DNA of 27,456 nucleotides from a virus (taxonomy: Duplodnaviria > Caudoviricetes): positions 1 through 27,456 of the IMG/VR virus record IMGVR_UViG_3300008255_000398; one strand, 5' to 3'. This document shows, in pieces, positions 2,930 through 22,574 of the stretch. How positions within the stretch are numbered: the stretch's first letter is position 1; every line of letters begins with the position of its first letter. The notes under the pieces were generated by a model, which was not told where the DNA came from, ran no database searches, and worked only from the letters and a program-made list of their open reading frames with translations. A program made the translations under genes and the position numbers.

Positions 2930-3748
2930 CTAAACATCATCCTCTTGATATACACTCTCTTGATTGATACAATCTGTCTCACAAGCGGCGATGCAGTTAT
3001 GCAACTTTACACTATACATATAATTGAGGTAATTACAATTCTTACATTTAGGATGTAATGGCTTTGGATTGACTGGTATTTCATTGACTTCAATATAATC
3101 CTTCAACTGGTTAACAATATTATGTTCTTCAAACCATGCCTTTAATTGGGCATCATTTTCAAGTACTGTAATAGATGTCATAAAACTTCGTAGTTTACTT
3201 GTTTCTTTAATGATCCAATTGTTATCCAATTTTCCACAATAGGCGTGATTTCCAGACACTTGAAAGCTCCAAATTCCATTATGATAATAGTCAAGGCATC
3301 CCCATTTAATATCACCATCAAACCATGTTATTGTATCATCTGTAATATCTTCAATGAAGTATCGCTTATAATTACTACCATCCCAAAAATTGAAAGTATA
3401 TTCATAATCAAGAGTATTTAGATTATCTTGAATAAACTCTCTATCGTTACAAAATAGCAATAGTGGGCGATCTTCAATTATTTCATATGTTGCCAGGTCA
3501 ACAGCACAATTTTTAATTTTGTAAGTCTTGAAAAACTTGTTGATATCATCCGATCCTATATTTTCATTCCAGAGGTCAAATTCTTCATTGATTAACGCCA
3601 ATTGAGAACTTGACAAAGGATAATCCAACTTAAAACCGTCATTTCTTGCGAACTGTGATATCTTTTCAATTTCATCCTTTTTAATTAAAACTAGCCCATT
3701 TTCATCATAAGTAAGCTTTACAGCAACATTGTCTTTTAATCTTTCCAT
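2930..3748 (-). CDS. Hypothetical protein (272 aa) with Cys-rich C-terminus
   Basis: Start reassigned to MERLKDN after GGAGGG, because the upstream TTG start overlaps the hairpin repeat. Confidence 0.8.
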   Translation of the reverse strand: MERLKDNVAVKLTYDENGLVLIKKDEIEKISQFARNDGFKLDYPLSSSQLALINEEFDLWNENIGSDDINKFFKTYKIKNCAVDLATYEIIEDRPLLLFCNDREFIQDNLNTLDYEYTFNFWDGSNYKRYFIEDITDDTITWFDGDIKWGCLDYYHNGIWSFQVSGNHAYCGKLDNNWIIKETSKLRSFMTSITVLENDAQLKAWFEEHNIVNQLKDYIEVNEIPVNPKPLHPKCKNCNYLNYMYSVKLHNCIAACETDCINQESVYQEDDV

Positions 3749-3825
3749 AATTTTTTTCCCTCCAAGGTTAATATTAGAGTTTAGCACTCTATAAAAGGCC
3801 CTTGAGGCCTTCTAACAATCCTAAA

Positions 3826-4311
3826 CTATTCAATTTCAGGCTGATTTTTTCGCCCTGCTTTAACTGTCTGTGAACCATATGTATTACGTATAGTTCCCAT
3901 GTCCCACGATCCCCGACTTTTGCACACGTACCACTCGGGTTTATAGTACCAACATTGTTTGACCTTATTCCACTTCAATTTAAGGGCCTTTAGATGGTCT
4001 TTAATCGGTTTTGTATCGCCCTTAACATAGAACCACCAACCACACACTTCAATTTCAATATTGGGATATTTCAACAGCTCATTGATGATATCGGCGAAAA
4101 TGTCGGCTTCCTTATGCTGGCTTGCTGTCTTTTTCTCTGTAAAGCCTTCATTCTCTGATACTCTGTCAATGGCATCATGATATTGGTTAAGCATTATCTT
4201 AAATTCTACATCATCACCATTATTTCTATCTGGATGCAGTTCAAGAGCTAATTTTCTATATCTCTGTTTAATTTCATCAATGGTATTACAATCATAAAAA
4301 TAATTTGTCAT
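3826..4311 (-). CDS. J-domain (DnaJ-like) protein
   Basis: N-terminal EIKQRYRKLALELHPDRNNGD with an intact HPD motif. The C-terminus (GWWFYVKGDTKPIKDHLK...W) is typical of phage J-domain proteins. Confidence 0.85.
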   Translation of the reverse strand: MTNYFYDCNTIDEIKQRYRKLALELHPDRNNGDDVEFKIMLNQYHDAIDRVSENEGFTEKKTASQHKEADIFADIINELLKYPNIEIEVCGWWFYVKGDTKPIKDHLKALKLKWNKVKQCWYYKPEWYVCKSRGSWDMGTIRNTYGSQTVKAGRKNQPEIE

Positions 4312-5143: not shown

Positions 5144-6175
5144 AATATATTACCCTCCATAGGTTTATTTGTGTACAAAGTACACTATAGGGAGAATAAA
5201 CAAGCCAATTGGCCTCCTTATTCCCTCTTACAATACTTTGTTTTGGAGGGAGGGAAATTTTTCCAGTCGTCAATATTTTGTCTTTTTTCACTTATTGGCT
5301 ATTATCCAGTGTTAAACCTCAATGAAGGGAATAACGGATATTTTACCATCATATAGACGATTTATATTAAGTTGTCAATGTACATGAGGTCATTACTTAA
5401 AAGAGGGTTTAAACGTGTACTAAGAGGTAGTCAATTGAAGTGAGCTAAGATGTAAACCAGGTTGATAAAACTTGTATATCCAGTCAATTAGACAGATTGC
5501 CTAATTTTTGCCCATAAATGCAGGGCGTGGAGGCCGGGCGGCCTGTAAGTAATTAAGAAGTGTACTACAATTACTATATTATCATGAAAATAGTATCCGT
5601 GGGTTACAAACATATTAAGCGTTAATTACAGTTAAATTTCATAAGTTGATGTTATATACAAAATATGGAAAATGTCGGCCGTTGTTAGTTATCTAGGTAG
5701 GAAAAACAATCTTTTCAGGGTTATTTCATCAATGAGGGTTATTGAATAACATCAAAAGAAGGTAATAAAAAGAATGTTAACGATTGATATTTAAGCAGCG
5801 TTATTTTATTGATAGGATAGTTTTGATTTAATATAGTAGGGTAACTATATTGGTCTAATATTAATCTGTCTTATTTTGAGTGTTAAGGCCCTTAAAAATG
5901 ATTTCCCCTATTTTAGGGCCCTGGATGTTTTTGCGCCAAAAAGTTGAAATCTAAGCGTTATTACCAATATGTACCAGGATAATATTGGATGATAAAGATA
6001 TTTATGTTTAGATTGTGGATAACTTTGAGGATGGGTATGTGGAAAATAATGGGAAATGGCTATATATAGGCGTTTGTTGATGGCATAATATGGTATTAAT
6101 GGAAAATATTATTGCCGGGTGGACCTGAGACAATTAAAACGTAACAGTAAATGAGAAAATAGCCAATTTGTGTAA

Positions 6176-6189
6176 CAAACATATGTTCT
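6176..6189. promoter_or_regulatory. LexA (Cheo) box, one mismatch
   Basis: CAAACATATGTTCT versus the Gram-positive consensus CGAAC-N4-GTTCG. Confidence 0.45.
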
Positions 6190-6223
6190 ATGCAGATAGA
6201 TAGCTGATTACCGGACGTAACAC

Positions 6224-6237
6224 CGAACAAACGTTTG
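6224..6237. promoter_or_regulatory. LexA (Cheo) box
   Basis: CGAACAAACGTTTG. Confidence 0.5.
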
Positions 6238-6580
6238 TTACAGAGATTTGATGATGTCAATATATGGATAGTATGGAATAATTTTCTGTCATTGTGATGA
6301 TAAGACTTACAGAGATATGGAATATTATGGATAAATTTAAGTATTGAAGTTATTGTAAATGATGTAATATATTCCCATGGAGAATGATTGCATAAATGGA
6401 TAAATTTGGGCGTACTGTTAAAAGATGGATAATCCATGACATATATGGGAAATACTAGGAGAATATTGATGACAATATATGGAAAATGACTAGATAATAT
6501 TGGAAAATGATGAGTAAATATGTTTAAGTATGGATATACTCACGTTTATTTCCTGTTACTAGGAGATTTGAAACGCTCTA

Positions 6581-6604
6581 AGAGAGAGAGAGAGAGAGAG
6601 AGAG
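6581..6604. repeat. (AG)12 microsatellite
   Basis: Read directly from the sequence. Confidence 0.9.
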
Positions 6605-7031
6605 GTAACAGACAGTAAATATATATAAGCTATATATTTTTTGTTCTTGCTTTTTTCTTTGCTGGAAATTGTTTTTAAAAAGCCGCAAAAATTACCAAAA
6701 TATATGAGGTATGTAAATATATTGAAGTTATGGTATATGTATACATGACTATGGTATGAACTGGAAATTATTGATATATGGAAGATGATATTTTGTAGAA
6801 AAGGTATATATATTCCCTGGATATAACTGGAAACGTTAGGGAAATGTTTGGATAGGGTGAAATTATACAAGCCTCTAGGGTAGTACTGTTACTGTTACGG
6901 AGTGAGTTTTTCTCCTGTGATAGAGTGGTGTTGAGTATGGGACAGTATTGCTGACCTTATGTTACTTACGTTTGTTGGTAGAATATGGAAGGCTTGAAAG
7001 GGTTTGAGGGAGAGAGTTACAGGGATGGGGG

Positions 7032-7045
7032 CGAACATATGTTCT
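7032..7045. promoter_or_regulatory. LexA (Cheo) box
   Basis: CGAACATATGTTCT. Confidence 0.65.
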
Positions 7046-8070
7046 CGGAACAGTGACTCGATCCCTCTGTTACTTGATGATGGAAGAAATGGGAAATAGT
7101 TCCATGTGAGGTGGGAGGATGGATAATAGTGTGTCGAAATGTGTAGGTTATGTGGATAATGATGGGAATTGGTAATTGTCGAAAAGTGAGCTGGGAATGG
7201 AAGAAAATGGTAAATAAGCGTGTCACGCTCCCAATTTATGGATGAATCGCTTATATATAAATAAATTTATCCCATAAATGGAAAATAAACACATATTTGT
7301 GAGGTCGAAAAAGGCGTTGTCAGTTTAACTGACGTGTCAGTTTAACTATATACTGGAAATTGTTTTATTCAAACTAATTGACACTGGTAAATACTAGGAG
7401 AAATAAGGCGTTTTTCGTTGACATGTGAATCATATTGATGGATATATTATACAGTAGAATAAACATAATATTTTGAGCGTGTCCAAAGTATCATTAAACC
7501 ACTGTTAAATATTTAACAATGTCATTAAGCTCTGATTACCAGATGGATATAAAAAAGTGAATAAATCCGGAAAAACACAAACAAAACACTACATTTGTCC
7601 ATAATTATGTTTATATATCCAGATAATTTCCAGAAATGGATAATGGGTATGGAATAGATTGGAAATTATGGGAATTGTTACGGTGTTTTTGCTATCGTCT
7701 AATTGAACAAAATAAACATTTTGTATAATTAGAATTCAGATACCCCTATATTACTATGTTATAGCTGGTAATATCCATAATATGGTAATTGTCGAATTGG
7801 GATAATAGTGATGTTATTACCATGTATTAGTATGTATGGTAGTATATGGTATGCATGATATATATTTATATGAAATAGCACAACAAAATAATTATTGTTT
7901 TTGTGTGAATTTCGTGGTATTATGGGCGTGACAGCAGGCCATATCTTAACGTTATTACCATATACTGGAAGACACCCGGAGTACCCACCACCCGGAACAT
8001 CCGTTCCCACGTACCAGGGACCTGGTTTGATCATTCCCCAAATAATTTTTCCCCAAGTACAAATAAAACA

Positions 8071-8088
8071 GGCGAACACGTGTTCGCC
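8071..8088. promoter_or_regulatory. Perfect LexA (Cheo) box upstream of the rightward genes
   Basis: 18-bp palindrome GGCGAACACGTGTTCGCC about 60 bp before ATG 8147. Confidence 0.7.
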
Positions 8089-8146
8089 GGAAATGAGGAT
8101 GCATGAGTAACAGTAAAACAGATTTACCACCAGAGGGAGGTACTAT

Positions 8147-8677
8147 ATGAATATCGACAATAAAGCTGGCGAAGTCAGCTTACTTAATCTACATACAATG
8201 GTAAAGAACATCACAAGAGTATTACGGTTATCAGAGAAATCTACACAGCGTATCATCACAGGGTTAATGCGAACATTTTTCCAGGATTTAGTAAATTCAT
8301 CCTGTGAGGGATTAGATAGTTACAGTGAAATTTCTAACAATGAGGACACGCATAAGCTTATTGCAGCTAATTATCTTAAGAATTGCAGTGGAGCGGTTCT
8401 GGGATTCGACCTGGAAGAAATTGGTGTAGATGTAGATCATAGCGTAAGACTTTACCCAGAGAAATTTTATCTCCAGGAATTTCACGCACAGTTAATGTAC
8501 GTAATAGGGGAATATCTGGAAAAAGACGAACAATTACAGATCGAAGAAGAGGGTTGCGGTGGAGCAACGAGCAAAGATGATAATGGGATGTCCTTTGCAT
8601 TTAAGTTAGCATGTGGATGCCTAAGTGAGTTACAGTATATTACTAAAGTTCACCTAGATAGTAAAAAAGGAAAGTAA
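8147..8677 (+). CDS. Hypothetical protein (176 aa)
   Basis: GGGAGGT RBS and protein-like composition. Confidence 0.75.
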   Translation: MNIDNKAGEVSLLNLHTMVKNITRVLRLSEKSTQRIITGLMRTFFQDLVNSSCEGLDSYSEISNNEDTHKLIAANYLKNCSGAVLGFDLEEIGVDVDHSVRLYPEKFYLQEFHAQLMYVIGEYLEKDEQLQIEEEGCGGATSKDDNGMSFAFKLACGCLSELQYITKVHLDSKKGK

Positions 8678-8835
8678 CTGCATTTGCTTTCAAGCGCAAC
8701 TAATAATACTTGAGATGCAAGAGGCAGTTACATGACTTTCTTCATCCAAGAAAAGATATCTAAGAGGAGATAAAGCATGGTGGAAATTTCATTCTTTACC
8801 ACCCGCTTTTAATCTTTTGATCTTTTAAGAAGGAG

Positions 8836-9093
8836 GTGGAAAATATGATAGTTGATGATCTGCCAAGGTCAGAGGATGATTTTGACAAGCCAGAACTTAA
8901 GGACGAGGATGTTTTTGACATTAACATTAATGAGAAGGAGAACGACAAGTATATTAATTTTGAGCCTACAGGAGGGGAACCTGTATGTCCAGCATGTGGA
9001 TTTATGTTAAATAGTGAGAATGAGATATGGTGTCCATTTTGTGGGTACAATGTACTGTTAGATTATGAATGTGAGGAGGATATTGATTTATGA
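8836..9093 (+). CDS. Acidic Zn-ribbon protein
   Basis: CPACG...CPFCG. AGGAGG RBS (start may be ATG 8845). ATGA overlap with the next gene. Confidence 0.7.
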   Translation: MENMIVDDLPRSEDDFDKPELKDEDVFDININEKENDKYINFEPTGGEPVCPACGFMLNSENEIWCPFCGYNVLLDYECEEDIDL

Positions 9094-9425
9094 AGGACAT
9101 GGGATTTGAAACAATATTAGAAAGGGCACAGAAAGAAAAAACGAAAGCTTTGGTATTTACTGGAAACAAGAAATATTCTTATTTTATTGACAGATTATTG
9201 GAATTAGGAGAGGTTAGGAGAGAGAAGCCTAATCGTTATGTTTTGCCAAATGGATCATGGATACAAATTGCAGTTAACGTTAAGACTTTGCCTGAAACTT
9301 ATAACTATGCTGGATATGAAGTTGACGCAATATATATTGATGAAATAACTGATATGGACCATCAAGCATTGGAATATTTAAGTACATTAATAAGGTCATC
9401 TGGAGGTGAAGCGAAAGATGAATAA
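9090..9425 (+). CDS. Truncated terminase-ATPase-like protein (Walker B region only)
   Basis: LPNGSWIQI...YAGYEVDAIYIDEITDM...EYLSTLIRS aligns with TerL FPNGARIKL...YQGQEYDVIGFEEATGF...QFVSTCLRS. No Walker A motif. Confidence 0.65.
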   Translation: MKDMGFETILERAQKEKTKALVFTGNKKYSYFIDRLLELGEVRREKPNRYVLPNGSWIQIAVNVKTLPETYNYAGYEVDAIYIDEITDMDHQALEYLSTLIRSSGGEAKDE

Positions 9426-10665
9426 GGTTGTAAAGGTCCAAGTATTCACTGAGAACAAAGAGATATACAAGATCATACATGAACTTATGTTTGAAACTAG
9501 AAAGTTACAGAATAAGGCCATTTGTGCGATGTATGAGTGGTCCGACTTTAAGTTTGAATATAAGGATAAGCATGGGACATATCCGAAGCCTTATGAAATC
9601 CTGGAGAAGAAAAAAGGAGATGGCGAAGAGTTTTACAAAACTGTGGGTGGGTATATTGATATGCACACCAGGGAACTTTTCTATAAGAATATTTCCAACA
9701 ATTCAAGCTCAGCTATAATGGAAGCTATGAAGCTTTTTAAGGCTAAAGAGAAGGACATGCAAAAGTGCTTATGTACATTGCCATTTTACCGCCAGAGCAA
9801 TAAAATAAACCTGCATAAACAGGTTATGAATATGTTTAAAAATGATGGGAAATATTTTATTGATGTTGGACTTATTTCTCAGAAATATAAAAGAGAATTA
9901 GAATTAACATCTGGACGATTTTTATTAACCATGTGTATCAATGATAACAGCCAGAAAACTATAGTTAATAGAATACTAAACGGTGAATATAGCTTATGTG
10001 AGAGTGAGCTGAGGTATGTAAAACGGCTTAAGAAGTTCTTTATATACCTTACATATGGATTTGACCAGGTCCAATTTAAGACCGGTAATAATGTTTTGGG
10101 TGTAGACATAGGAATCAAGTATCCTGTCTACATAGCTCTAAAAGACAGTTTGAAGCGTTGGCATGTGAGTGGTGACGAGATTGGAGCCTTTAGAAAACAG
10201 GTAGAAAAAAGGCGATATGCTAAGAGAAAGCAAAGGCTTGTATGTGGTGACGCAAGCCGCAAACATGGGCGTGGTAGACATTTGAAGCCTGTTACAGATA
10301 TTGGAGATAAAGTCGCTAGATTTAAAGATCGGATCAATCACAAATATAGTAGTTTTATAATTGATATTGCAAAAAAGAATAATGTTGCTATAATAAAGAT
10401 GGAAGATTTGACCGGGATAAATGATGATGTCAAATTTCTTAAAAACTGGCCCTATTATGACCTACAAAGTAAGATTAAATATAAAGCCGAGGCGGTAGGC
10501 ATAGTAGTTGAATTGGTAAATCCTGCATTTGACACTAAAGAGTGTAGCAAGTGCGGTCATATAGAATCAGGAAACATAAAGCCACAAGAGACATTTAGAT
10601 GTGAATCTTGTGGATTCGAAGCTCAAAAGAACTACAATTCGGCATTAGTTATAGCCAACAGATAA
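9418..10665 (+). CDS. cas12f: Cas12f/TnpB-family RNA-guided protein (415 aa), probably nuclease-inactive
   Basis: RuvC-I VLGVDIG, RuvC-II IKMEDL, NWPYYDLQSKIKYKA, Zn finger CSKC...CESC. RuvC-III reads QKNYNSALVIA instead of NADxNAAxNIA. GGAGGTG RBS before ATG 9418. Confidence 0.85.
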   Translation: MNKVVKVQVFTENKEIYKIIHELMFETRKLQNKAICAMYEWSDFKFEYKDKHGTYPKPYEILEKKKGDGEEFYKTVGGYIDMHTRELFYKNISNNSSSAIMEAMKLFKAKEKDMQKCLCTLPFYRQSNKINLHKQVMNMFKNDGKYFIDVGLISQKYKRELELTSGRFLLTMCINDNSQKTIVNRILNGEYSLCESELRYVKRLKKFFIYLTYGFDQVQFKTGNNVLGVDIGIKYPVYIALKDSLKRWHVSGDEIGAFRKQVEKRRYAKRKQRLVCGDASRKHGRGRHLKPVTDIGDKVARFKDRINHKYSSFIIDIAKKNNVAIIKMEDLTGINDDVKFLKNWPYYDLQSKIKYKAEAVGIVVELVNPAFDTKECSKCGHIESGNIKPQETFRCESCGFEAQKNYNSALVIANR

Positions 10666-10674
10666 GCAGTTTAC

Positions 10675-10792
10675 GGGCTGACTTGACAGCCTTAAAGCGA
10701 GACAGGGGTTCGCCCCTGTACTCTGCTAAGTCGTGATTACGCCGACATCCCAGGTGTGTGCCTGGCAATTAATATAAAAAACTGTTTTGAAG
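10675..10792 (+). ncRNA. tracrRNA/omegaRNA-like scaffold, copy A
   Basis: Starts 10 nt after the cas12f stop. Stems GGCTG/CAGCC, ACAGGGG-TTCG-CCCCTGT, GTCG/CGAC and CCAGG/CCTGG. Homologous to 18796-18913 with compensatory changes. Confidence 0.75.
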
Positions 10793-12558
10793 ATGGTATT
10801 ATAATTGGCGAATTGAAGAGTTTATAAAGTATTTGAGTTGAAGTAAATGGTGGGCATGATAATGTTTGAAGTAAATGTAAAGAATGATAATGTTTGAAGT
10901 ATGATCATATAATGAGCTAAGGTTTGAAGATAGGAAAACATATAATAAAGTTTTAAGCGGTGGAATATTTGAAGAAATACATTATCGGTTGAAGATAGTG
11001 TGGTAGTTGTTTGAAGAAGTGAGTGAGATAGAGGGAAAGTTTGAAGCGATAGAGGGAAATTTTGAAGATAGGTAATTAATTGATATTATGTTTGAAGTAT
11101 ATAGTAAGATGATAATGTTTGAAGTATATTAGTAAACTTAAAGAACTTGAAGAATAATCTTGCATTTGAAGATGTGTTATTGAAGAAGATGTGTTATTGA
11201 AGAATTTTATATTTTGAAGATATGAAGCTTTATATTATTGAAGATATGGAACTAATAATAATTGTTGAAGAGGTTTGTGGGAGTTAATTGGAGATTTGAA
11301 GATTTATTTAGAAGATTATATAAATTATCTAATGTTGAAGATGGGATAAAGCATGTAAAATTTGAAGAGAAGAAAATTATGAGATATTGAAGGTTGAAGT
11401 TTAAGTTTATAATGCATTAGGCAATGTTGAAGTTGAAGGTTTGGATGATGTCTTTATTGAAGAATGTAAGTATCCCATTTGTTGAAATTGAAGGATATGT
11501 CTATTGTTTATTATTGAAGATGTAAGTATGGTATGGTGATATTGAAGGCTATATAGTGTAGTTGAAGAAGGAAATTAGAATATGCTTTATTGAAGTTTAA
11601 ATACATTTATGTCTGTTGAAGGCTATTGAAGAAAGAAAAGATGTTGTTTCTGATTAATTGAAAGTAAGCTAATATAGTGTGTTGAAGAAGGAGAAATATT
11701 GAAGAAACCTAATAAGACAGTTGAAGAAATGGATATTGAAGAAACTAATGGCATTACAATATGTTGAAGAAATAATTTGAAGATGATATGTATAAGCAGA
11801 ATTGAAGATAGTTGTCTAAGGTATGTTGAAGAGAGTATATGTTGAAGATAGGTATATTGAAGTAATAAAGAGAGATTATAGTTGAAGAAAATGTTTAAGC
11901 TATATATTGAAGATTGTTAAGGATTGATTGGATTGAAGATGGAATTTGATTGAAGTATAATGAGTGTAATTGAAGGATTAAATAAATGTAAATTGAAGTA
12001 AGATACTATTTATAAGTTGAAGATACAAATTATTATTTACTATTGAAGATATTATTTGGAATTATTGAAGAATGGGAAGTATTGAAGATATTTATTGAAG
12101 AATGTTATGTTTTATCTAGTTGAAGATAGAATTGAAGAATGTATTGTTTTATGAAGTTGAAGAATATGTATACCCTCTATAGTTGAAGATTGCTATTATA
12201 AAATAATTGAAGAAAATATATTATACACCCAAATTGAAGACCCAAAAATTGAAGGCAAATATATATGATTGAAGAATGTGCAATGTTATTGAAGGATAGA
12301 ATAATTGAAGAGTATAGTTAATATTAATTGAAGTTTATGCTAAGAGATGATTGAAGAGAATGAAATGATTGAAGAAGATAAAATTTACTGATGATTGAAG
12401 GTTAAGATTTATATTTTATTGAAGAGATATAATAATAGTATTTAGTTGAAGATTAAAAATGTGTTATATTGAAGAGAATGAAAATAATAATAGTATTTGA
12501 TTGAAGAAGAGCAATGATTGAAGAGATAGTACTAATTGAAGAAGGTTTATAATTGAAG
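10787..12558 (+). CRISPR. Non-canonical array of about 77 TTGAAG hexamers with variable spacers (mean period about 23 nt)
   Basis: Manual count of 77 exact copies on the + strand, and I saw none on the - strand. No ORF. Bounded by the scaffold RNA and a terminator. The repeat itself is certain, while the CRISPR role is inferred. Confidence 0.65.
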
Positions 12559-12601
12559 GAAAAAGGATGATGTGTTTGGCCTGCCTATGTCAGGTCTTTA
12601 T

Positions 12602-12652
12602 TTATGCAAAAAAGTCTGTACTCAGAGCGGAGTACAGGCTTTTTATGCATAA
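12602..12652. terminator. Bidirectional intrinsic terminator closing the array
   Basis: TTATGCAAAAAAGTCTGTACTC-AGAGCG-GAGTACAGGCTTTTTATGCATAA inverted repeat with A/T tracts. Confidence 0.8.
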
Positions 12653-12789
12653 TAATTACAATAACTCAAATTATTTTTAATTAACAACAGGAAGTGATTA
12701 AATTATATTATAGCTATGAGCTAATTGCAACAATCATGTTGAAAATTGTCGGATATACATATATTATTATTATAGGGGTGATGTAACAA

Positions 12790-13245
12790 ATGGATAAAAT
12801 AAATTATGAAAATCTATATAAAAAAGCATATACAGGTAAAGAATCAAGTTATGAAATATTTGAAAAGTGGGCAAAATCAAGGAACATTATTAAATTTATT
12901 AAAAAAACAGGATCATGGAAGCAGATAACAAAAAATGGTATAAGAGGAAAGTTCCAAAACAGAGGGTATGAAAAAATGCCATTATCGGATCATACATCTG
13001 TATGGAAAGATAAGACAGGGAAAAAAATTCTTATTAGTCAGCCATATGAATATTATCCAGGTGATATGATGTCTTGTTTTGCTCCACCTAATATATATTG
13101 TGATGAAGAGCGTTCCCAAAAAAACTTTAATGAATTAAAAACATGGTGTAATGAAAGAAATTTAGAAGTAACGTTCTATGATTCAACAAATAGTTGGTAT
13201 TATCCATTCAATGCTATATTAATTGAAATAAGACAAAAAGAATAG
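12790..13245 (+). CDS. Hypothetical protein (151 aa)
   Basis: GGGGTG RBS. Motifs DHTSVW, ISQPY and SWYYP. Confidence 0.75.
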   Translation: MDKINYENLYKKAYTGKESSYEIFEKWAKSRNIIKFIKKTGSWKQITKNGIRGKFQNRGYEKMPLSDHTSVWKDKTGKKILISQPYEYYPGDMMSCFAPPNIYCDEERSQKNFNELKTWCNERNLEVTFYDSTNSWYYPFNAILIEIRQKE

Positions 13246-13293
13246 AGTGTTTTTTCTATCAGGCAACATTGGAACTTTTGGAGAGGTGACAGA

Positions 13294-13752
13294 ATGAACG
13301 ACATCACACTATACGGTAGAAATAGTTATGAAGATAAAGTAGAACCTTATCTTGACCAGATTGAAAAAATGTATATGGATGGATATGGAAGAAAAAAGAT
13401 TGCTGATAATCTTGGAATTTCAGTAAGTCTTTACACCAAATATTTAAAAATCCATAAGGACCTTGCATTAGTTGAAAACAGTGGAACTGAAAACATTGTT
13501 GAGAAGCTACGAGCTAGCGTAATTAAAGAAGCGACTGGATATGAGACAGCGGAAGAAACAACAATGTATGATGCAGATGGTAATGTTATAGCAAAGAAAG
13601 TAAAAACATATTTCAAGCCTGGAAATGCTAGATTGTTAGAATTCTTATTAACTAATTTTGAGAGAGATACATTCTCGAAAGATGGTAAACAGGATGATGA
13701 TGGAGCTATTCTTATCGAACTATCACCGGAAGCAATGGAATACAGCGAATAG
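13294..13752 (+). CDS. terS: Terminase small subunit
   Basis: N-terminal HTH (RKKIADNLGIS) and ATGYETAEETT...LLEFLLTN pattern. Lies upstream of terL. Confidence 0.7.
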   Translation: MNDITLYGRNSYEDKVEPYLDQIEKMYMDGYGRKKIADNLGISVSLYTKYLKIHKDLALVENSGTENIVEKLRASVIKEATGYETAEETTMYDADGNVIAKKVKTYFKPGNARLLEFLLTNFERDTFSKDGKQDDDGAILIELSPEAMEYSE

Positions 13753-16320: not shown

Positions 16321-17205
16321 ATGAATACCCAGTTAATATTGATAGATGAATTAGAAAATAGATTTTTATTGAAGAACAAAGATATAGATATAGTTTTTGA
16401 TATGAATAAAGCTGATGTAGCATATGTTACATTTAGTAAAATAGATTTTTCAACATACCCAAATATAAAACATGTATTATGTCCATGTACTAACACGAAA
16501 CATATCACAGTAAATAAGACTCAGACACTACACTACTTAGATGATGCCGCATGGTTAGGCTCAAATGTAAGGTCCACTGTAGAGTGGACTATTTGGGCTA
16601 TAATGAATTTGTTAAAAAGTGATCATAACAACAGGCCTAATGAAATATTTGGAAAGACTGTGGGCATTATTGGTATGGGCAGGATAGGTCAAAAAGTAGC
16701 TAGAATACTTAGATCACTTGGATGTCATCTCATTTATCACGATCCATATGTTGAACAATGCGGTGGAATTCTTAATATATCTTTAGAAAGAATTATGAAA
16801 TATTCTCAAATTATCACTGTTCATGCAGTGAGTAATGAATCTACATTTAAACTAATTTCAGAAGAACAATTTAATCAGGTTAGGCATAGACCATATTTTA
16901 TTAACTGTTCAAGAGGAGCAGTAGTCAGTGGTAAAGCTTTATGGAATTGTTACACCAGGAACAAACTAAAAGGATTTGCTATTGATGTGATTGATACTTA
17001 TGATCCAGAAACTATTGCTAGTATTAGACATGAATCGCTAATTAGTAATAGGGTTATATTTACAGATCATAAGGCTGGAAGTAGTATTGAAAGTAGAATT
17101 GCAACAGATAGCTATGTTATTGACAAATATATCACAACTAGGGGACAGCAAAATGGAGAAGACGAAAATAATAGTAGAATGCTGCAACAATCATCTCGGA
17201 CTTGA
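16321..17205 (+). CDS. D-2-hydroxyacid dehydrogenase family NAD-binding protein
   Basis: GKTVGIIGMGRIG, FINCSRGAVV, AIDV and TDHKAG. Confidence 0.88.
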   Translation: MNTQLILIDELENRFLLKNKDIDIVFDMNKADVAYVTFSKIDFSTYPNIKHVLCPCTNTKHITVNKTQTLHYLDDAAWLGSNVRSTVEWTIWAIMNLLKSDHNNRPNEIFGKTVGIIGMGRIGQKVARILRSLGCHLIYHDPYVEQCGGILNISLERIMKYSQIITVHAVSNESTFKLISEEQFNQVRHRPYFINCSRGAVVSGKALWNCYTRNKLKGFAIDVIDTYDPETIASIRHESLISNRVIFTDHKAGSSIESRIATDSYVIDKYITTRGQQNGEDENNSRMLQQSSRT

Positions 17206-17923
17206 TGAAGTTCGAATGAAGATGATTGAAGAGGCAGCAAAAGCAGGAGCGACTTATGTAAAATGGCAGCTTTATAATTCCGATTTTATCAATGAAGAAT
17301 ATCCTAATTATGAAGTTGTAAAAATGAACATGAAAAGATGTGAACTTACGCCATTAGCAGTAAGTAACATCATGAGGAAATCTCAGGATATGAATGTTAT
17401 CCCGATGTTTACCATCTTTAATATTGACAGGCTTGCATTATTGCAGGGATGGCCGCCTACTGCTATGGCTGTTAAGATAGCAAGCCCGGACCTATTGAAT
17501 TATTCTTTAGTAAATGCAGTAAGGTCCAAATTTAAAGATTCAGAAATGTTCATTAGTGCTGGTATGCACAATGAAGAAGAGATTGAAAACGCTAGATATA
17601 GGTATAGTGATTTAAAACTTAAATGGTTGTATTGTGTTTCGAAATATCCAGCACATAAAGAAGATATATCATACATTGATATGAGAAGCTTTGACGGATT
17701 TTCAGACCATACAGAAGGCATCGATTGCGCTTGTCTAGCAATAGATATTAATCAGCCAACGTATATTGAAAAGCATTTTACATTGTCTAAGTTACTTCCT
17801 GGGAAAGACCAGGAAATTAGTATTGATCCGGAAGAACTTAAAAGGTTAGTAGTTCATTCTGGATATCATATTAATAACTACAATTATAAAAGGAGATTTA
17901 AAGAAATTGGAATATCTAGTTGA
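17153..17923 (+). CDS. neuB: N-acetylneuraminate/nonulosonate synthase family (NeuB), no C-terminal AFL domain
   Basis: ECCNNHLG, VKWQ, KIASPD, ISAGM, YCVSKYP, GFSDHT, IEKHFTL. Confidence 0.9.
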   Translation: MEKTKIIVECCNNHLGLDEVRMKMIEEAAKAGATYVKWQLYNSDFINEEYPNYEVVKMNMKRCELTPLAVSNIMRKSQDMNVIPMFTIFNIDRLALLQGWPPTAMAVKIASPDLLNYSLVNAVRSKFKDSEMFISAGMHNEEEIENARYRYSDLKLKWLYCVSKYPAHKEDISYIDMRSFDGFSDHTEGIDCACLAIDINQPTYIEKHFTLSKLLPGKDQEISIDPEELKRLVVHSGYHINNYNYKRRFKEIGISS

Positions 17924-18776
17924 AGAGAGAAGTTGTCCTATTTGTAATAAGTATGATTCGTCAGTAATGTGGAAGAAAAGCCCTTTGACAAAATATAGTA
18001 AGACTATAATGGATTATGAAGATATGATTCATGGCGAAAATCATATATGTCACATATGTGGGATGGTATATGAAAAGTATCCAATGATTTCTTCCTGCCT
18101 GGATGAATTTTATCAAAAGGATGAAGAAAAAGGGATAAGTCCTTACCGTGAAATCTATTCGTATACTATGAATAGCATATACCTTCATTTTGCGCATACT
18201 GTGCAATATTGCAAAGAGGTATTAAAGAAAGAAAACTTTGGTGATTGGTTAGACATTGGAAGTGGTGATCCATGGATAACTAAAGAAATGCAAAAATATG
18301 GTTCTGGATGGAGTTGGGACCCTGGATTTGATCACACAAGAAATTTCAAGAGCGATCCAAGAAGTAGATTTGACTTGGTCACATGTATGAACATGCTTGA
18401 ACATGTCTATGCTCCTATAGAGTTTTTACAAAACATGCATCCACTGGTTTCTAACTTTGGTAACCTTATTCTATGTGTACCATATGTGTACACTAATAGT
18501 ATTACTATGCATAAAGACCAATGGTTTAGTAACGCTCATATACATCATTTTGACATTAATTCTTTAGATAATACCTGCTTATTAGCAGGATGGAAGATTG
18601 ATAGTGTTCAATTGCTTTATGAAGAGATGGGACAGAAGATATATGTTAGATGTAAGAAAATTAGGCCTAAACAGCCTGTATTTAATTTTAATAAAGAAAA
18701 AGTTAGCAGAGCAAAAGATTTTATCTCACTTCAAAATCAAGTTTGGCTGGCTGGAAATGATATGAAGGTAGTTTAA
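17907..18776 (+). CDS. Class I SAM-dependent methyltransferase with N-terminal Zn finger
   Basis: CPIC...CHICG, WLDIGSG, FDLVTCMNMLEHV, HIHHF. TTG start after AGGAG. Confidence 0.85.
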   Translation: MEYLVEERSCPICNKYDSSVMWKKSPLTKYSKTIMDYEDMIHGENHICHICGMVYEKYPMISSCLDEFYQKDEEKGISPYREIYSYTMNSIYLHFAHTVQYCKEVLKKENFGDWLDIGSGDPWITKEMQKYGSGWSWDPGFDHTRNFKSDPRSRFDLVTCMNMLEHVYAPIEFLQNMHPLVSNFGNLILCVPYVYTNSITMHKDQWFSNAHIHHFDINSLDNTCLLAGWKIDSVQLLYEEMGQKIYVRCKKIRPKQPVFNFNKEKVSRAKDFISLQNQVWLAGNDMKVV

Positions 18777-18795
18777 TGGGTGATGAATGGTAATA

Positions 18796-18913
18796 GGTTA
18801 ACTCGATAACCTTAAGGCGAGGCTGGAAAAATTTATTCTTGCACTCTGCCAAGCCGTGAGTATACCGGCATCCCAGGCGTGTGCCTGGCAAATTTAATAT
18901 ATGTTAAGACTAG
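18796..18913 (+). ncRNA. tracrRNA-like scaffold, copy B, with anti-repeat
   Basis: Aligns with 10676-10776. The 3' segment AATATATGTTAAGACTAG (18896-18913) is imperfectly complementary to the adjacent repeats, including G-U pairs. Confidence 0.75.
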
Positions 18914-18924
18914 TGTTTGTGCTG

Positions 18925-19085
18925 GTTTAGTACTAACATGTGTTGACTTGGAGGCTGGATGTTACAAAACTTAATAACATAATATCCAGGTTTAGTACTA
19001 ACATGTGTTTTGTTGGAGGATGCTGCTTACTGCACCAATTAAATATAATCCTGGCAGTTTAGTACTAACATATGTTTAGTTGGAG
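18925..19085 (+). CRISPR. Mini CRISPR array: three 29-nt repeats and two spacers (36 and 38 nt)
   Basis: GTTTAGTACTAACATRTGTTnnnTTGGAG at 18925-18953, 18990-19018 and 19057-19085. Confidence 0.88.
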
Positions 19086-19163
19086 CTAGAAGATTTACAC
19101 CAAATTTGGAGAGTTGAAGCTAAAGTAAATAGACATTTTAATAACATTATAAGGAGCGACAGT

Positions 19164-20384
19164 ATGAATAAACAATTTAAGAAAGACAGAACAGGAAAGT
19201 ATGTATTAGAGAGCAATATAAAACCACCAGAAGGTCCAGAAATAGCGGAAGTATCTGCTATACCTAAAGGTGAGCTATGTGTAAAGGTAGAGGATATATC
19301 TGATATATCGTTACCAGAAGAAGTGCTAAAAGTAAAAAAGGCTGATAAGCTTGCCATTGTTGGGTTTGCTCCTAGCTGGAACTTAGCTCCTTTTGATGAT
19401 AAAGAGTTTGATGTTTGGGGAATTAACGAATTATATGTCTTGGCAGTAAATAAAAGGTTTACAGGTTGGTTTGAAATTCATGATCCTTGGTCACCTTCCA
19501 GGAACAATGCGAATCATCACAATTTTTTAAAAACCTGTACTATCCCTTTATTTATGCAGAGACATTATGGCGAATTCCCCAATAGTCTTGAATTCCCACG
19601 TAAACAGGTCAAAAACTTTTTTAACCAGAATATTATTATTGGCAATGTTGGATCATACTACACAGATTATAGTAACCAAATAACCTGGATGAATGGTCTT
19701 GCTATAATGCTCGGATATAAAGAAATTCATGTGTATGGCGTTGATATGGCTCAATCGAGTGAATATGCTTGGCAAAGAGCAGCATGTCAATTTATGATAG
19801 GCTATGCCCTTGGAGCTGGAATCAAAGTGCTTATCCCTAAAAATAGTGAGTTATGCAAATATCCTCGTGACTATGGTTGGGAAACAGACAATTATCAAAG
19901 GAACTTGAAGAAACAAAGAATCAAGGATGTTGGAAATAGAATTCAGCATATCGAGAATGCAATCATTGAACAGGATTATTATAAAGATGCTTTTGCAACT
20001 GAAAACAAGAGAGCTAATGACGATTATAACAATAAAATCAATCAGCTTAAATTAAGGGTTGTGAAACTTCAAACCATGCTTGAGAAGAATTCTGATATTA
20101 ACAGGATTATAACTACTATGCCTAAAGATATGAAAGAGCTTGAAACAAAGACACCTGAAATTCTTGGCAAGGTAGCTAAAGAAAATGAAACTGTTGAGGC
20201 AGAATTGAAGGCTTTAGAACAGGATATAACTGCTCTTAGGACTGAAAGAGAGCAAGTCAACAAGCAACATTTTATCCAGATGCAAATATTGGACCTTAAC
20301 AAAAAGAATCATACTACATCAAAAAGCTTACATCAGGGTTGTCTTGATGAATGCAAACATGATTTAGCAAATAACTTAGTGTGA
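19164..20384 (+). CDS. Putative nonulosonate/sialyl-transferase-like (Maf/DUF115-type fold) protein with C-terminal coiled coil
   Basis: LAIVGFAPS, VWGINE and AIMLGYKEIHVYGVDM motifs. ATG 19164 follows AGGAG, whereas the TTG at 19080 lies inside a CRISPR repeat. Confidence 0.6.
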   Translation: MNKQFKKDRTGKYVLESNIKPPEGPEIAEVSAIPKGELCVKVEDISDISLPEEVLKVKKADKLAIVGFAPSWNLAPFDDKEFDVWGINELYVLAVNKRFTGWFEIHDPWSPSRNNANHHNFLKTCTIPLFMQRHYGEFPNSLEFPRKQVKNFFNQNIIIGNVGSYYTDYSNQITWMNGLAIMLGYKEIHVYGVDMAQSSEYAWQRAACQFMIGYALGAGIKVLIPKNSELCKYPRDYGWETDNYQRNLKKQRIKDVGNRIQHIENAIIEQDYYKDAFATENKRANDDYNNKINQLKLRVVKLQTMLEKNSDINRIITTMPKDMKELETKTPEILGKVAKENETVEAELKALEQDITALRTEREQVNKQHFIQMQILDLNKKNHTTSKSLHQGCLDECKHDLANNLV

Positions 20385-20391
20385 GGTTGAT

Positions 20392-21123
20392 ATGAATAGA
20401 TTACAGGGATTAATGTTGGGATTTGGAGATATTGGAACAGCAGTGCATAGCTTGTTTAAACATGTAATTAACTTTGAGATTATTGATCCAAAAAGAAAGA
20501 TGGTTGCAAAAATTGATAGGACCAGATATGACATTATAGTTGTAACTTATCCTTATCATGATGGTTTTATTGAAGAAATAAATGACCTGGCTATTAAGTA
20601 TTCAGCTTTTGACATAATGATATTTTCTACTTTGCCAATTGGGATCACTAAACAAATTACTGGAGCTGTACATATCCCAGTAGAGGGAAAGCATCCAGGA
20701 CTTGACAGGTATATAAGAAGCTGGAGATTATTTATAGGGCATAATGGCAATATTAGCGAAAAAATAATGCATTGTTTAAATAACATTGGCAACAACTACA
20801 CATTGGTAAGAGATTCTAATGTGACAGAAGCATTGAAGCTTTTATCAACAACTTGCTATGGTATTAACATTGAGTTTGCAAGGCTTGTTGGTGAAGTATT
20901 CCAGACATTGAGAAGCGATTATTCTTTGTGGAATGAATATACCTCAGCATATAATCTCCTGTATTCTAATACCAATGAGTTCAAGAGTATTAAGAGATAT
21001 AATCTTTATGCGCCTAGAGGTCCTATTGGTGGACACTGTATAGTATCTAATGCAAAATTATTAGGGAAATCGTTTAAATCACCTATTATCGACATTGTGA
21101 AAGGGGAACAATATGAGTCTTAA
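20392..21123 (+). CDS. UDP-glucose/GDP-mannose dehydrogenase family protein, short form
   Basis: GFGDIG Rossmann motif, FSTLPIG, EALKLLSTT..GINIEFA and catalytic IGGHCI. Confidence 0.8.
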   Translation: MNRLQGLMLGFGDIGTAVHSLFKHVINFEIIDPKRKMVAKIDRTRYDIIVVTYPYHDGFIEEINDLAIKYSAFDIMIFSTLPIGITKQITGAVHIPVEGKHPGLDRYIRSWRLFIGHNGNISEKIMHCLNNIGNNYTLVRDSNVTEALKLLSTTCYGINIEFARLVGEVFQTLRSDYSLWNEYTSAYNLLYSNTNEFKSIKRYNLYAPRGPIGGHCIVSNAKLLGKSFKSPIIDIVKGEQYES

Positions 21124-21925
21124 AGATATAAAGGAAAGATCAGAGGTAGTTATCATTGGAACTGGGAGGTATGAAGAGGAGCTTCCTTATGCATTTGATT
21201 TAAACAAAACAGATGTGTGGGCGTTAGGTCCTAGTGCTTTTAAAGCTTATGATAATAATGAACCATTTTCATATAACTGTTTATTTGAGATACATAATAA
21301 AAAGTATTCTCCATACTTTAGAAATGAAATTTACCAGGAATTCTTGAAGAAAAATCCTGTTAAAAAGATTATGCAGAAAGAAAGCTATACTTATCCTTTA
21401 TCAGAAGCATACCCACTTGAGGAGATAATAGAAGAGTTTGGAACTAAATTCTTTATATGTTCTCTCTCATATGCTATAGCATTAGCCATACATATGAAAT
21501 ATGAGAAGATAGTTCTAAGAGGTATTAACATGATCATGACTGATGATTTAATACAAAAAAATGGTGTTGAGTTTTGGTTGGGAATTGCTGAAGGAAGAGG
21601 AATAAAAGTTGAAACTTCTTCAGTATGTGATTTATTGAAATGTGGTAAAATGTATGCATATGAATGTGATAATACATTAGCTGTGTATCAGCAAAGATAC
21701 ATGAATACTATCATAAGAGAGATAGCAAGATATCTGCAAAGAAACCATGAATTCCACACAACTATGGCTGAAATTTCTTCAAGTGTTACTGACATGTTTA
21801 ATATGCTTACTACTGAAAGAGTTGGCTTCATGAGACAGATACTTGAAAGACATGAAATAAACTATAGAAATGAGGATGATGAAAATGAGAATTGTTGCTC
21901 TAGTACCTGCAAGGAAGGGCAGTGA
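21113..21925 (+). CDS. Paralog of 19164-20384 (putative glycosyltransferase)
   Basis: VVIIGTG, DVWAL, LFEIH, YPL, AIALAIHMKYEKIVLRGINM and FWLGIAEGRGIKV all align with the paralog. Confidence 0.6.
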   Translation: MSLKDIKERSEVVIIGTGRYEEELPYAFDLNKTDVWALGPSAFKAYDNNEPFSYNCLFEIHNKKYSPYFRNEIYQEFLKKNPVKKIMQKESYTYPLSEAYPLEEIIEEFGTKFFICSLSYAIALAIHMKYEKIVLRGINMIMTDDLIQKNGVEFWLGIAEGRGIKVETSSVCDLLKCGKMYAYECDNTLAVYQQRYMNTIIREIARYLQRNHEFHTTMAEISSSVTDMFNMLTTERVGFMRQILERHEINYRNEDDENENCCSSTCKEGQ

Positions 21926-22574
21926 AAGGGTACCTAATAAGTCTATGATGAGGCTTGTTGGTAAACCATTATTATTCTACACCATTGATGCCGCTGTGGA
22001 CTCTACTCTAATAGAAGATATTTACATAAGCACTGACTATACACCAACTGTACTTAAGCAATGTCTTAAGAGGAAAAAGACACACTATGTAAGAAGGCCT
22101 GACGAAATGTGTACTAGTAGTTCACCAGCAATAGATTATATAAGACACTTTATTGATGTTGCTGATTTAAGTCAGGACGACATAATTGTTCTTTTGCAGC
22201 CTACATCTCCTTTAAGAACTGGTATAGACATAACTAATGCAATAGAAGCGTATAAAAATACGGATAAGGAAACATTAGTCAGTGTTGTTAAATTTCCTAC
22301 TATAAAGCAGTTTTATTATTCTGATGGATCACCAATGGAGATCGGTGAGTATTTGAGATTAGAGCAGTCTAACCAAACTGTATATAAGAGGAATGGTAGT
22401 ATCTATATATTTAATGTCAGATTCTTTAAAGAGCGAAATGATATATTTGGACACAGCCCATATCTTTTCGAGATGGATTCATTCAAAGCAGACGATATTG
22501 ACGATATGAAAGACTTTAAGAAAATTGAAGCTTTTGTTAAAGGGGGAGGGTTTAAGCTTTGGAAATCTTTTTAG
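21885..22574 (+). CDS. neuA: Acylneuraminate cytidylyltransferase (CMP-nonulosonate synthetase)
   Basis: VPARKGSERVPNK, GKPL, STD, RP, LLQPTSPLR, NGSIY, DIDD. Confidence 0.92.
   Translation: MRIVALVPARKGSERVPNKSMMRLVGKPLLFYTIDAAVDSTLIEDIYISTDYTPTVLKQCLKRKKTHYVRRPDEMCTSSSPAIDYIRHFIDVADLSQDDIIVLLQPTSPLRTGIDITNAIEAYKNTDKETLVSVVKFPTIKQFYYSDGSPMEIGEYLRLEQSNQTVYKRNGSIYIFNVRFFKERNDIFGHSPYLFEMDSFKADDIDDMKDFKKIEAFVKGGGFKLWKSF

Follow-up and report, generated by a model that had tools for sequence, protein, structure and literature searches.

Within the 27,456-nucleotide groundwater tailed-phage record IMGVR_UViG_3300008255_000398 (Duplodnaviria; Caudoviricetes; positions 1 to 27,456, hereafter the window), a cas12f-like gene is followed by an RNA resembling a trans-activating CRISPR RNA (tracrRNA), which we call scaffold 1, and by an array whose only repeated part is the hexamer TTGAAG, the handle. 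The hexamer is shown below to be the 3′ end of an ancestral CRISPR repeat, and the effector is probably a conserved, nuclease-dead binder. In the reading that we favour, with a probability of about 45%, the locus supplies a dead, DNA-binding Cas12f with a guide library whose handle-only units diversify by themselves, and the protein would obstruct the DNA of the host or of rivals.

The array is genuine DNA. The stretch 8000-13500 occurs as a single contig with 0 differences in one sequencing run, which may be the source of the record, and pieces of the array occur with 0 differences in two further groundwater runs (four of the ten runs listed were compared with the array). An earlier inspection of the letters without database searches, the sequence-only reading, had counted about 77 copies of TTGAAG on one strand against one or two expected by chance, with mostly unique spacers of 8-25 nt and a terminator at the end, and this description stands. 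The 77 exact copies are all on the + strand, packed into 1.8 kb. Shuffles of the array region give 1.7 copies when mononucleotide composition is kept and 3.1 when dinucleotide composition is kept (maximum 9 in 500), so the expected number was about right. All 76 spacers differ, 65 of them measure 8-25 nt (mean 17.2 nt), and 76 of 77 7-mer seeds are distinct. Unit spacing is regular, with a coefficient of variation of 0.44; randomly placed units give 0.98, and never less than 0.65 in 5000 simulations. The first terminator-like hairpin lies at 12578-12596 (+); the second, at 12616-12637, was scored on the − strand, and by eye a T-run follows it on the + strand too.

Positions of the features of the locus and of its paralogue in the window
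Feature	Coordinates	Strand	Description and basis
AsCas12f1-like effector	9418..10665	+	415 aa, intact open reading frame; Pfam Cas12f1-like_TNB, sequence and fold matches
Scaffold 1 (tracrRNA-like)	10666..10786	+	Folding z, alignment to relatives
Handle-only array	10787..12558	+	77 exact TTGAAG (consensus R-TTGAAG-A) in a weakly folding sequence; 76 spacers, all different, with a median of 18 nt and 4.7% C
Unit 1: first handle and 20-nt spacer	10787..10812	+	Joined to scaffold 1, it would be a natural single guide
Pair of terminator-like hairpins at the array end	12578..12645	+	Hairpin scoring and sequence
Scaffold 2, paralogue of scaffold 1	18793..18920	+	70/97 aligned columns identical, loop ACUCGA, full-length anti-repeat, no adjacent cas gene
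Mini CRISPR array	18925..19111	+	Three 30-nt repeats ending TTGGAG(G/C) at 18925, 18990 and 19057; spacers of 35 and 37 nt

The base preceding the handle is a purine in 61 of 77 units (p=4e-4) and the base following it is A in 54 (p=5e-7); the conserved unit leans to 8 nt (R-TTGAAG-A), a feature overlooked before. Hexamers with one mismatch number 10, versus 11 expected by chance, which suggests that handles are either kept exact or lost as whole units. The array is not protein-coding (25-76 stops in each of the six frames, unit lengths evenly spread modulo 3), nor is it a perfect tandem repeat, every spacer being different. Spacers as the decayed 5′ part of an ancestral repeat were rejected as well (46 and 127 of 500 shuffles score as high). 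Regarding a coding origin of the spacers, stops are low in one of six frame tests (15 vs 31) and not in the other five.

The structured RNA after cas12f, already noted in the sequence-only reading, folds significantly: 10660-10815 has a z of −3.55, and 0 of 200 shuffles are as stable. Its first hairpin (10676-10691) carries the loop ACUUGA, whose CUU (10682-10684) is complementary to the AAG of the handle. The closest relative, locus L036 (72% identical, RuvC-III aspartate intact), has the same scaffold loop. Its array consists of 10 copies of a 29-nt repeat with TTGAAG at the end; the next base is G in 9 of the 10, and the spacers measure 37-39 nt. Loci L001, L002, L005, L006 and L007 hold homologous scaffolds and ordinary short arrays. 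Across 25 loci, namely 24 relatives and the second locus of the window, an automated count finds strict Watson-Crick pairs between the repeat end and loop bases 2-4 in 20 (permutation mean 8.2, maximum 15 in 20,000, a significance overstated by kin loci that are not independent). Four of the five automated misses pair by eye and L005 is ambiguous; the automated match of L006 used an overshot repeat end, and it pairs by eye too. Five loop triplets occur among these loci: CUC, CUU, UUC, CUG and UUU. In a 6-row alignment, two of the three pseudoknot pairs show changes on both sides. Pairing of the tracrRNA loop with the repeat 3′ end is supported by sequence and covariation.

Because of the repeat end of L036, the covariation of the scaffold loop and the compensatory second scaffold described below, we identify TTGAAG, from the sequences, as the 3′ end that remains of an ancestral CRISPR repeat. 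The earlier proposal of a repeat shrunk to its scaffold-pairing handle is thereby borne out. Scaffold 1 is itself shorter than its relatives by ~35-38 nt, the missing part comprising the 5′ portion of the first repeat as well as the distal anti-repeat; the scaffold therefore runs directly into handle 1 and is fused in cis to unit 1. Its anti-repeat is a stub starting with CAAU at 10766. The long repeat:anti-repeat duplex, full in scaffold 2 and in the relatives, is missing from scaffold 1, and the 8-nt lean of the handle agrees with both the CAAU stub and the last 8 nt of the L036 repeat. Covariation shows in the relatives that the handle AAG pairs with loop CUU and (R)UUG with the CAA(U) stub; the same pairs would form here. 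We consider it likely that scaffold 1, with its Cas12f, is where the units dock.

Some relatives have peculiarities of their own. The L007 scaffold (3543-3890), identical to scaffold 1 at 29 of 30 positions over 30 nt, lies upstream of a more distant cas12f (39%). In L002 (6396-6460), the 5′ end of the second repeat is missing, and the first spacer opens with a stretch complementary to the repeat of its own array. In L036 (6352-6456), ~14 nt of spacer 1 recur, by eye, as the reverse complement in spacer 2, as if both target strands had been sampled.

In scaffold 2, the loop CUC faces the handle GAG, versus CUU and AAG for scaffold 1: a compensatory change within one genome. It lies far from the cas12f gene, inside a sugar-modification gene cluster, and no second cas12f is present in the 27,456-base record. 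A lone TTGGAG stands at 19106, 20 nt past the last handle of the mini-array, and the last repeat of the L007 array keeps only its 3′ end. These two cases suggest a way in which handle-only units may arise, although each could be due to chance. Spacer A of the mini-array self-folds as a 10-bp hairpin. For the mini-array spacers, the best phage match has an E of about 1. A match at E 0.07 on Bacillus plasmids, intergenic in the one record inspected, was not accepted as a target, and spacer B has no exact 20-nt match in IMG/VR.

The gene upstream ends at 10665, as first read, and its open reading frame (ORF) starts with ATG at 9418. Its product is closest to AsCas12f1 (~36% identity), whose chains are the best solved relatives by sequence (E 6e-81) and by fold (Foldseek E 7e-39; model pLDDT 85.5). 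Among NCBIfam models it passes the general guided_TnpB cut-off only, and not that of Cas12f2. Its length and its REC, WED, RuvC and zinc-finger parts are those of Cas12f1 proteins (400-500 aa).

RuvC-I D230 and RuvC-II E329 are retained. The other two of the four catalytic residues (D, E, R, D) are lost. D405N affects a position that is D in 256 of 264 homologues and aligns with AsCas12f1 D401; R387I affects one that is R in 242 of 264 and aligns with R383. Alanine at either AsCas12f1 residue is reported to abolish cleavage (10.1101/2023.07.03.547593). Two further unusual residues are T372D (T in 247 of 264 homologues) and A404K (A in 242 of 264). Residues 366-415 are 54% identical to L036, versus 75% elsewhere in the protein; for the same segment, L036 shares 81% of residues with L001 and 73% with L002. 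The dimer-interface residues E40, F44 and Y48 are retained, and the C-terminus is full-length, with its zinc-finger cysteines. In a variant sequencing run, X7, the changes listed for one fragment of the ORF, three in number, are all synonymous (6 of the 9 differences in the contig concerned are listed). Two catalytic positions are thus lost in a protein whose remainder is conserved, and the effector is probably a nuclease-dead binder. The sequence-only reading had implied a nuclease and overlooked the degraded site.

Catalysis is affected elsewhere in the clade. The near homologues P0005 and P0008 also lack one catalytic residue, P0005 having D changed to Y at RuvC-III. A related phage Cas12f (L005 4001-5460, record G001), with two repeats only, has D changed to N at RuvC-I, a separate loss of catalysis.

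Catalytic decay, together with the lack of adaptation genes in the record, the single lineage and the low-complexity spacers, would also suit a non-functional relic, that is, a decaying locus whose short repeat expanded by chance. We regard this as the least probable of the explanations weighed here, given 77 exact copies and a chance-level number of near-copies amid spacers diverged beyond alignment, the regular spacing, the intact ORF with its synonymous-only listed changes in one fragment, and the X7 changes at 10666-10667, which preserve the pairing of the closing stem of scaffold 1.

Three of the four PAM-reading positions (PAM, protospacer-adjacent motif) differ from AsCas12f1, H72, Y76 and K96 being replaced by G, D and M; the PAM is therefore not predictable from AsCas12f1. 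The same substitutions bear on a different role for the motif, outside Cas12f loading: as PAM-like NTTG landing sites on DNA, as a mimic of the 8-nt handles of class 1 CRISPR RNAs (crRNAs), or as sites for another protein. The 30-nt repeats of the relatives, with their 35-38-nt spacers, resemble what we take to be type I-B repeats. Most units begin with NTTG, and AsCas12f1 is described as reading NTTR; the conserved unit of ~8 nt also matches the length left by Cas6b (PMC5965381). Nevertheless, besides the altered PAM-reading residues, no Cas6 site is present to free an 8-nt 5′ end, and the repeat-end homology and loop complementarity already explain the motif, which makes such a role very unlikely.

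How the array changes is suggested by X7, though weakly, as its contigs, compared at 85% likeness, have a depth of 2-3.5 and may contain errors. A 30-nt deletion removes exactly one unit, and a 202-nt stretch is swapped for 33 letters containing another handle and a local duplicate. There are also an 11-nt insertion and two substitutions in spacers; none of the listed changes falls within a hexamer. Neighbouring spacers of the window share blocks, 10 pairs scoring at least 22 versus 3.3 expected. The array appears to diversify by mutation and not by capture of foreign DNA. Neither Cas1 nor Cas2 was found in the record, which is ~54% complete, in keeping with their absence noted earlier. Since the full repeats are gone, Cas1-Cas2 could not plausibly add spacers, and the library would change by duplication, deletion and point mutation of units.

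The shared blocks could also result from slippage expansion behind a single real guide. Unit 1 alone would then serve a TldR-like repressor, and the other 76 units, kept as an RNA, would multimerise or titrate the phage's own dead Cas12f. Unit 1 is indeed fused in cis, its spacer is exactly 20 nt long, and no listed X7 change falls in it. Spacer 1, however, finds no target in the window (best match 15/20, shuffle mean 14.7), and the guide-sized regular spacing extends along the whole array. We judge this arrangement quite unlikely.

In the guide-library reading that we favour, a phage locus of type V-F (AsCas12f1 clade) would have been rebuilt into a non-cutting DNA binder with many guides. 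Scaffold, array and terminators would lie on a single transcript of ~1.9 kb. The scaffold would be bound by a dimer of dead Cas12f, and any handle, in cis or in trans, could dock there and offer the 10-20 nt that follow it as guide, the remaining RNA being trimmed by host RNases. Such guides would be too AT-rich for precise memories, and recognition by a PAM and a short seed is most likely; dead TnpB/TldR is reported to bind through a target-adjacent motif (TAM) and a seed of ~6 nt (10.1101/2023.11.30.569447). Parked in this way at numerous AT-rich places in the DNA of the host or of rivals, the dead enzyme would obstruct transcription or replication. More tentatively, we put forward the general principle of a non-acquiring CRISPR-derived system: one scaffold would choose among 77 handles of 6-8 bases on the same transcript, slippage and mutation would diversify the guides, dead Cas12f would gain broad, evolvable short-seed specificities, and a one-base change in loop and handle would keep it orthogonal to a second, conventional channel.

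Several results weigh against a guide library. Seed matches in the rest of the window equal those of shuffles, without the depletion that self-avoidance would predict. Searched against INPHARED phages, the array gave nothing significant (best listed E 0.01), and 380 of 401 sampled genomes of one clostridial family held no targets above controls. The spacers are C-poor, of low complexity and filler-like: with 62 C among 1310 bases, their C content is below that of every measured phage part (10-14% C), as expected of drifting filler. Thirty-one of the 76 are shorter than 17 nt, and in X7 a 2-nt deletion at the start of spacer 2 shifts its seed. The hexamers are no more accessible than the remaining RNA (0.16 vs 0.15). 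The handle offers the scaffold only about 3+4 bp, and for AsCas12f1 only the distal part of the long repeat duplex is dispensable, a deeper cut lowering activity.

The guide role that the sequence-only reading gave to the units finds no support in targets: no target set (window, INPHARED, the 380 clostridial-family genomes) beats shuffled controls. No self-targeting spacers above controls were found in the window; a slight excess of matches there is partly a masking artefact at unit 77, and the best that remain are three 17/20 matches. A 30/30 match over units 49-50 in genome G252 lies inside a coding gene and was judged chance for AT-rich DNA. The spacers of L036, for their part, had no matches in the sequences searched. 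Promoter-like guides were also considered: TATAAT occurs 6 times versus 2.9±1.8 and near-consensus −10 boxes 23 times versus 13.6±3.4 in mononucleotide shuffles. This is suggestive at most, and we rejected it as a reading; promoter-like sites in 8000-13000 show no excess (29 vs 26 in shuffles).

Spacers that resemble unselected, unstructured filler without targets are what an RNA decoy would contain. As an anti-CRISPR, the 77 handles would load junk guides into an active Cas12f-tracrRNA with AAG handles (L036-type) of a rival phage or of the host; the dead protein may add dominant-negative heterodimers, and the GAG-handle mini-array of the phage itself may escape. This is the main rival explanation, unlikely in our estimate but ahead of the others. 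An active AAG-handle system, that of L036, exists in nature, and the phage genome itself holds an orthogonal second scaffold-array pair. Precedents are single-repeat RNA anti-CRISPRs (Racrs) and a dead Cas9 of a phage, for which sequestration of crRNAs has been proposed (PMC11656645). Yet a cognate scaffold and a conserved dead effector directly upstream would absorb the decoys, and no active cas12f occurs in the 27 kb record (~54% of the phage). Apparent selection against handle-antisense triplets in the array (TCA 1 vs 8.2, TTC 1 vs 6.2) was discarded, since a control non-coding region is depleted too, and being not array-specific it lends the decoy no help.

None of 117 other loci has a hexamer-only array (1.09 Mb in all, with some redundancy and with four complete phage records among them), and 14 terminase-related phage loci likewise lack one; the array is thus derived in this lineage, and such arrays, anticipated at homologues, are not family-wide. 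A four-unit TTGAAG pattern gave 9 matches in IMG/VR, all perfect tandem repeats or coding; with one gap fixed at 19 nt, it can miss arrays. A scaffold pattern scan returned 5 matches, two of them known loci and three chance (L076, L079, L080), and a second scaffold pattern scan returned 0. In a sample of the class Clostridia, 1 of 399 genomes matched at E<=1e-60, the centre genome itself. No handle-only Cas12f array was found in the literature searched, whose scope excluded supplements and most subscription journals. Altogether, the observation made from the letters and the origin of the hexamer hold, while guide targeting is unsupported by matches, the implied nuclease is most likely dead and the arrangement is confined to this locus among those compared. 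New here are the two lost catalytic residues, the second scaffold with its compensatory change, the guide-sized regular spacing and the unit changes in a variant strain.

The record belongs to a phage with a terminase, an amidase, a P22-like portal and sugar-modifying genes, and its proteins are also encoded on a 51,752-base contig. No tRNA was found in it, no sigma family (rpoE/HTH partner) was seen among the scanned neighbours of the effector, and Rfam gave zero matches at gathering score and three sub-threshold ones, all at the terminator. Between terminase and portal, 16321-22574 encodes a NeuB-like synthase, cytidylyltransferases, a 2-hydroxyacid dehydrogenase and a methyltransferase, with a second cytidylyltransferase copy at 1419 (1419-2096); these genes likely make a sialic-acid-like sugar that modifies the virion or host surface. 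A small DnaJ-domain protein is encoded at 3826-4311 (−), within leftward genes. The stretch 5900-7760 (+) is long, G-skewed and non-coding, with 35 TGGA versus 17.2 in dinucleotide shuffles (maximum 27 in 300), mostly as A-TGGA-(A/T)-A, and a (GA)n run near 6581-6604. The motif is presumably similar to the ANGGA sites of CsrA-sponge RNAs.

If the favoured reading is true, the array would be a natural minimum of a tracrRNA-dependent repeat, with ~23 nt per guide versus 65-70 nt in relatives, and a model for packing multiplexed guides very densely alongside an effector of 415 aa. Depending on which of the two leading explanations is right, it would be a guide library driven by mutation, or else a new anti-CRISPR made of multivalent RNA. 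The loop/handle pairs (CUU/AAG, CUC/GAG, UUC/GAA, CUG/CAG) would offer a natural orthogonality code. Standard CRISPR finders would probably overlook such arrays, which may form a class of their own in phages.

Among known systems, the locus is most like type V-F CRISPR-Cas12f1 of the AsCas12f1 clade (PDB 8j12, 7wju, 8dzj), with which it shares the fold, ~36% identity, a scaffold right after the gene and the pairing of loop and repeat end. In contrast to type V-F, its repeat is 6-8 nt and not 30 nt, its spacers are ~18 nt and not 35-38 nt and bear no sign of acquisition, its anti-repeat is a stub, and two catalytic residues are lost. Repeats of 29-37 nt with acquired spacers are lacking in the handle-only array, and the mini-array has the repeat length only. 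By its sequence, the locus derives from type V-F yet departs from it in three defining properties: catalysis, the long duplex, and full repeats with acquired spacers.

Array-associated dCas12f and dCas12f-sigmaE (PMC13472631) are likewise nuclease-dead Cas12f proteins that bind DNA; some of them have arrays and are proposed repressors. They are C-terminally truncated and mostly linked to sigmaE/HTH, whereas the present protein is full length, with point losses, phage-borne and accompanied by handle-only repeats. TldR (10.1101/2023.11.30.569447) and Cas12m share the dead RuvC, the mobile-element context and short-seed binding. TldR has one fused guide and an identifiable promoter target, whereas 77 units share one scaffold here and no target was found; unit 1 resembles the fused guide of a TldR-type single omega-RNA, but the scaffold is tracrRNA-derived and 76 units follow.

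Phage arrays in which very short fixed motifs alternate with variable segments are described for TIGR-Tas and VIPR (10.64898/2026.04.26.720920; 10.64898/2026.10.21.760802). These have other effectors and fixed periods of 18 and 5 nt, unlike the Cas12f, tracr-like RNA and variable period of ~23 nt found here. The survey of periodic intergenic elements in the latter source mainly lists periods of 60-79, 18 and 5 nt, with 66 other clusters, of which those of 10, 8 and 7 nt are described. Racrs, or single repeat units, and viral mini-arrays (PMC11656645) are also repeat-derived phage RNAs that possibly form non-productive complexes, and the second array of the window is a typical mini-array. Racrs are single, near-full repeats without their own effector, in contrast to 77 minimal handles with a cognate scaffold and protein. 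By analogy, the system may be likened to a dCas12f/TldR binder or to a Racr, while being a member of neither.

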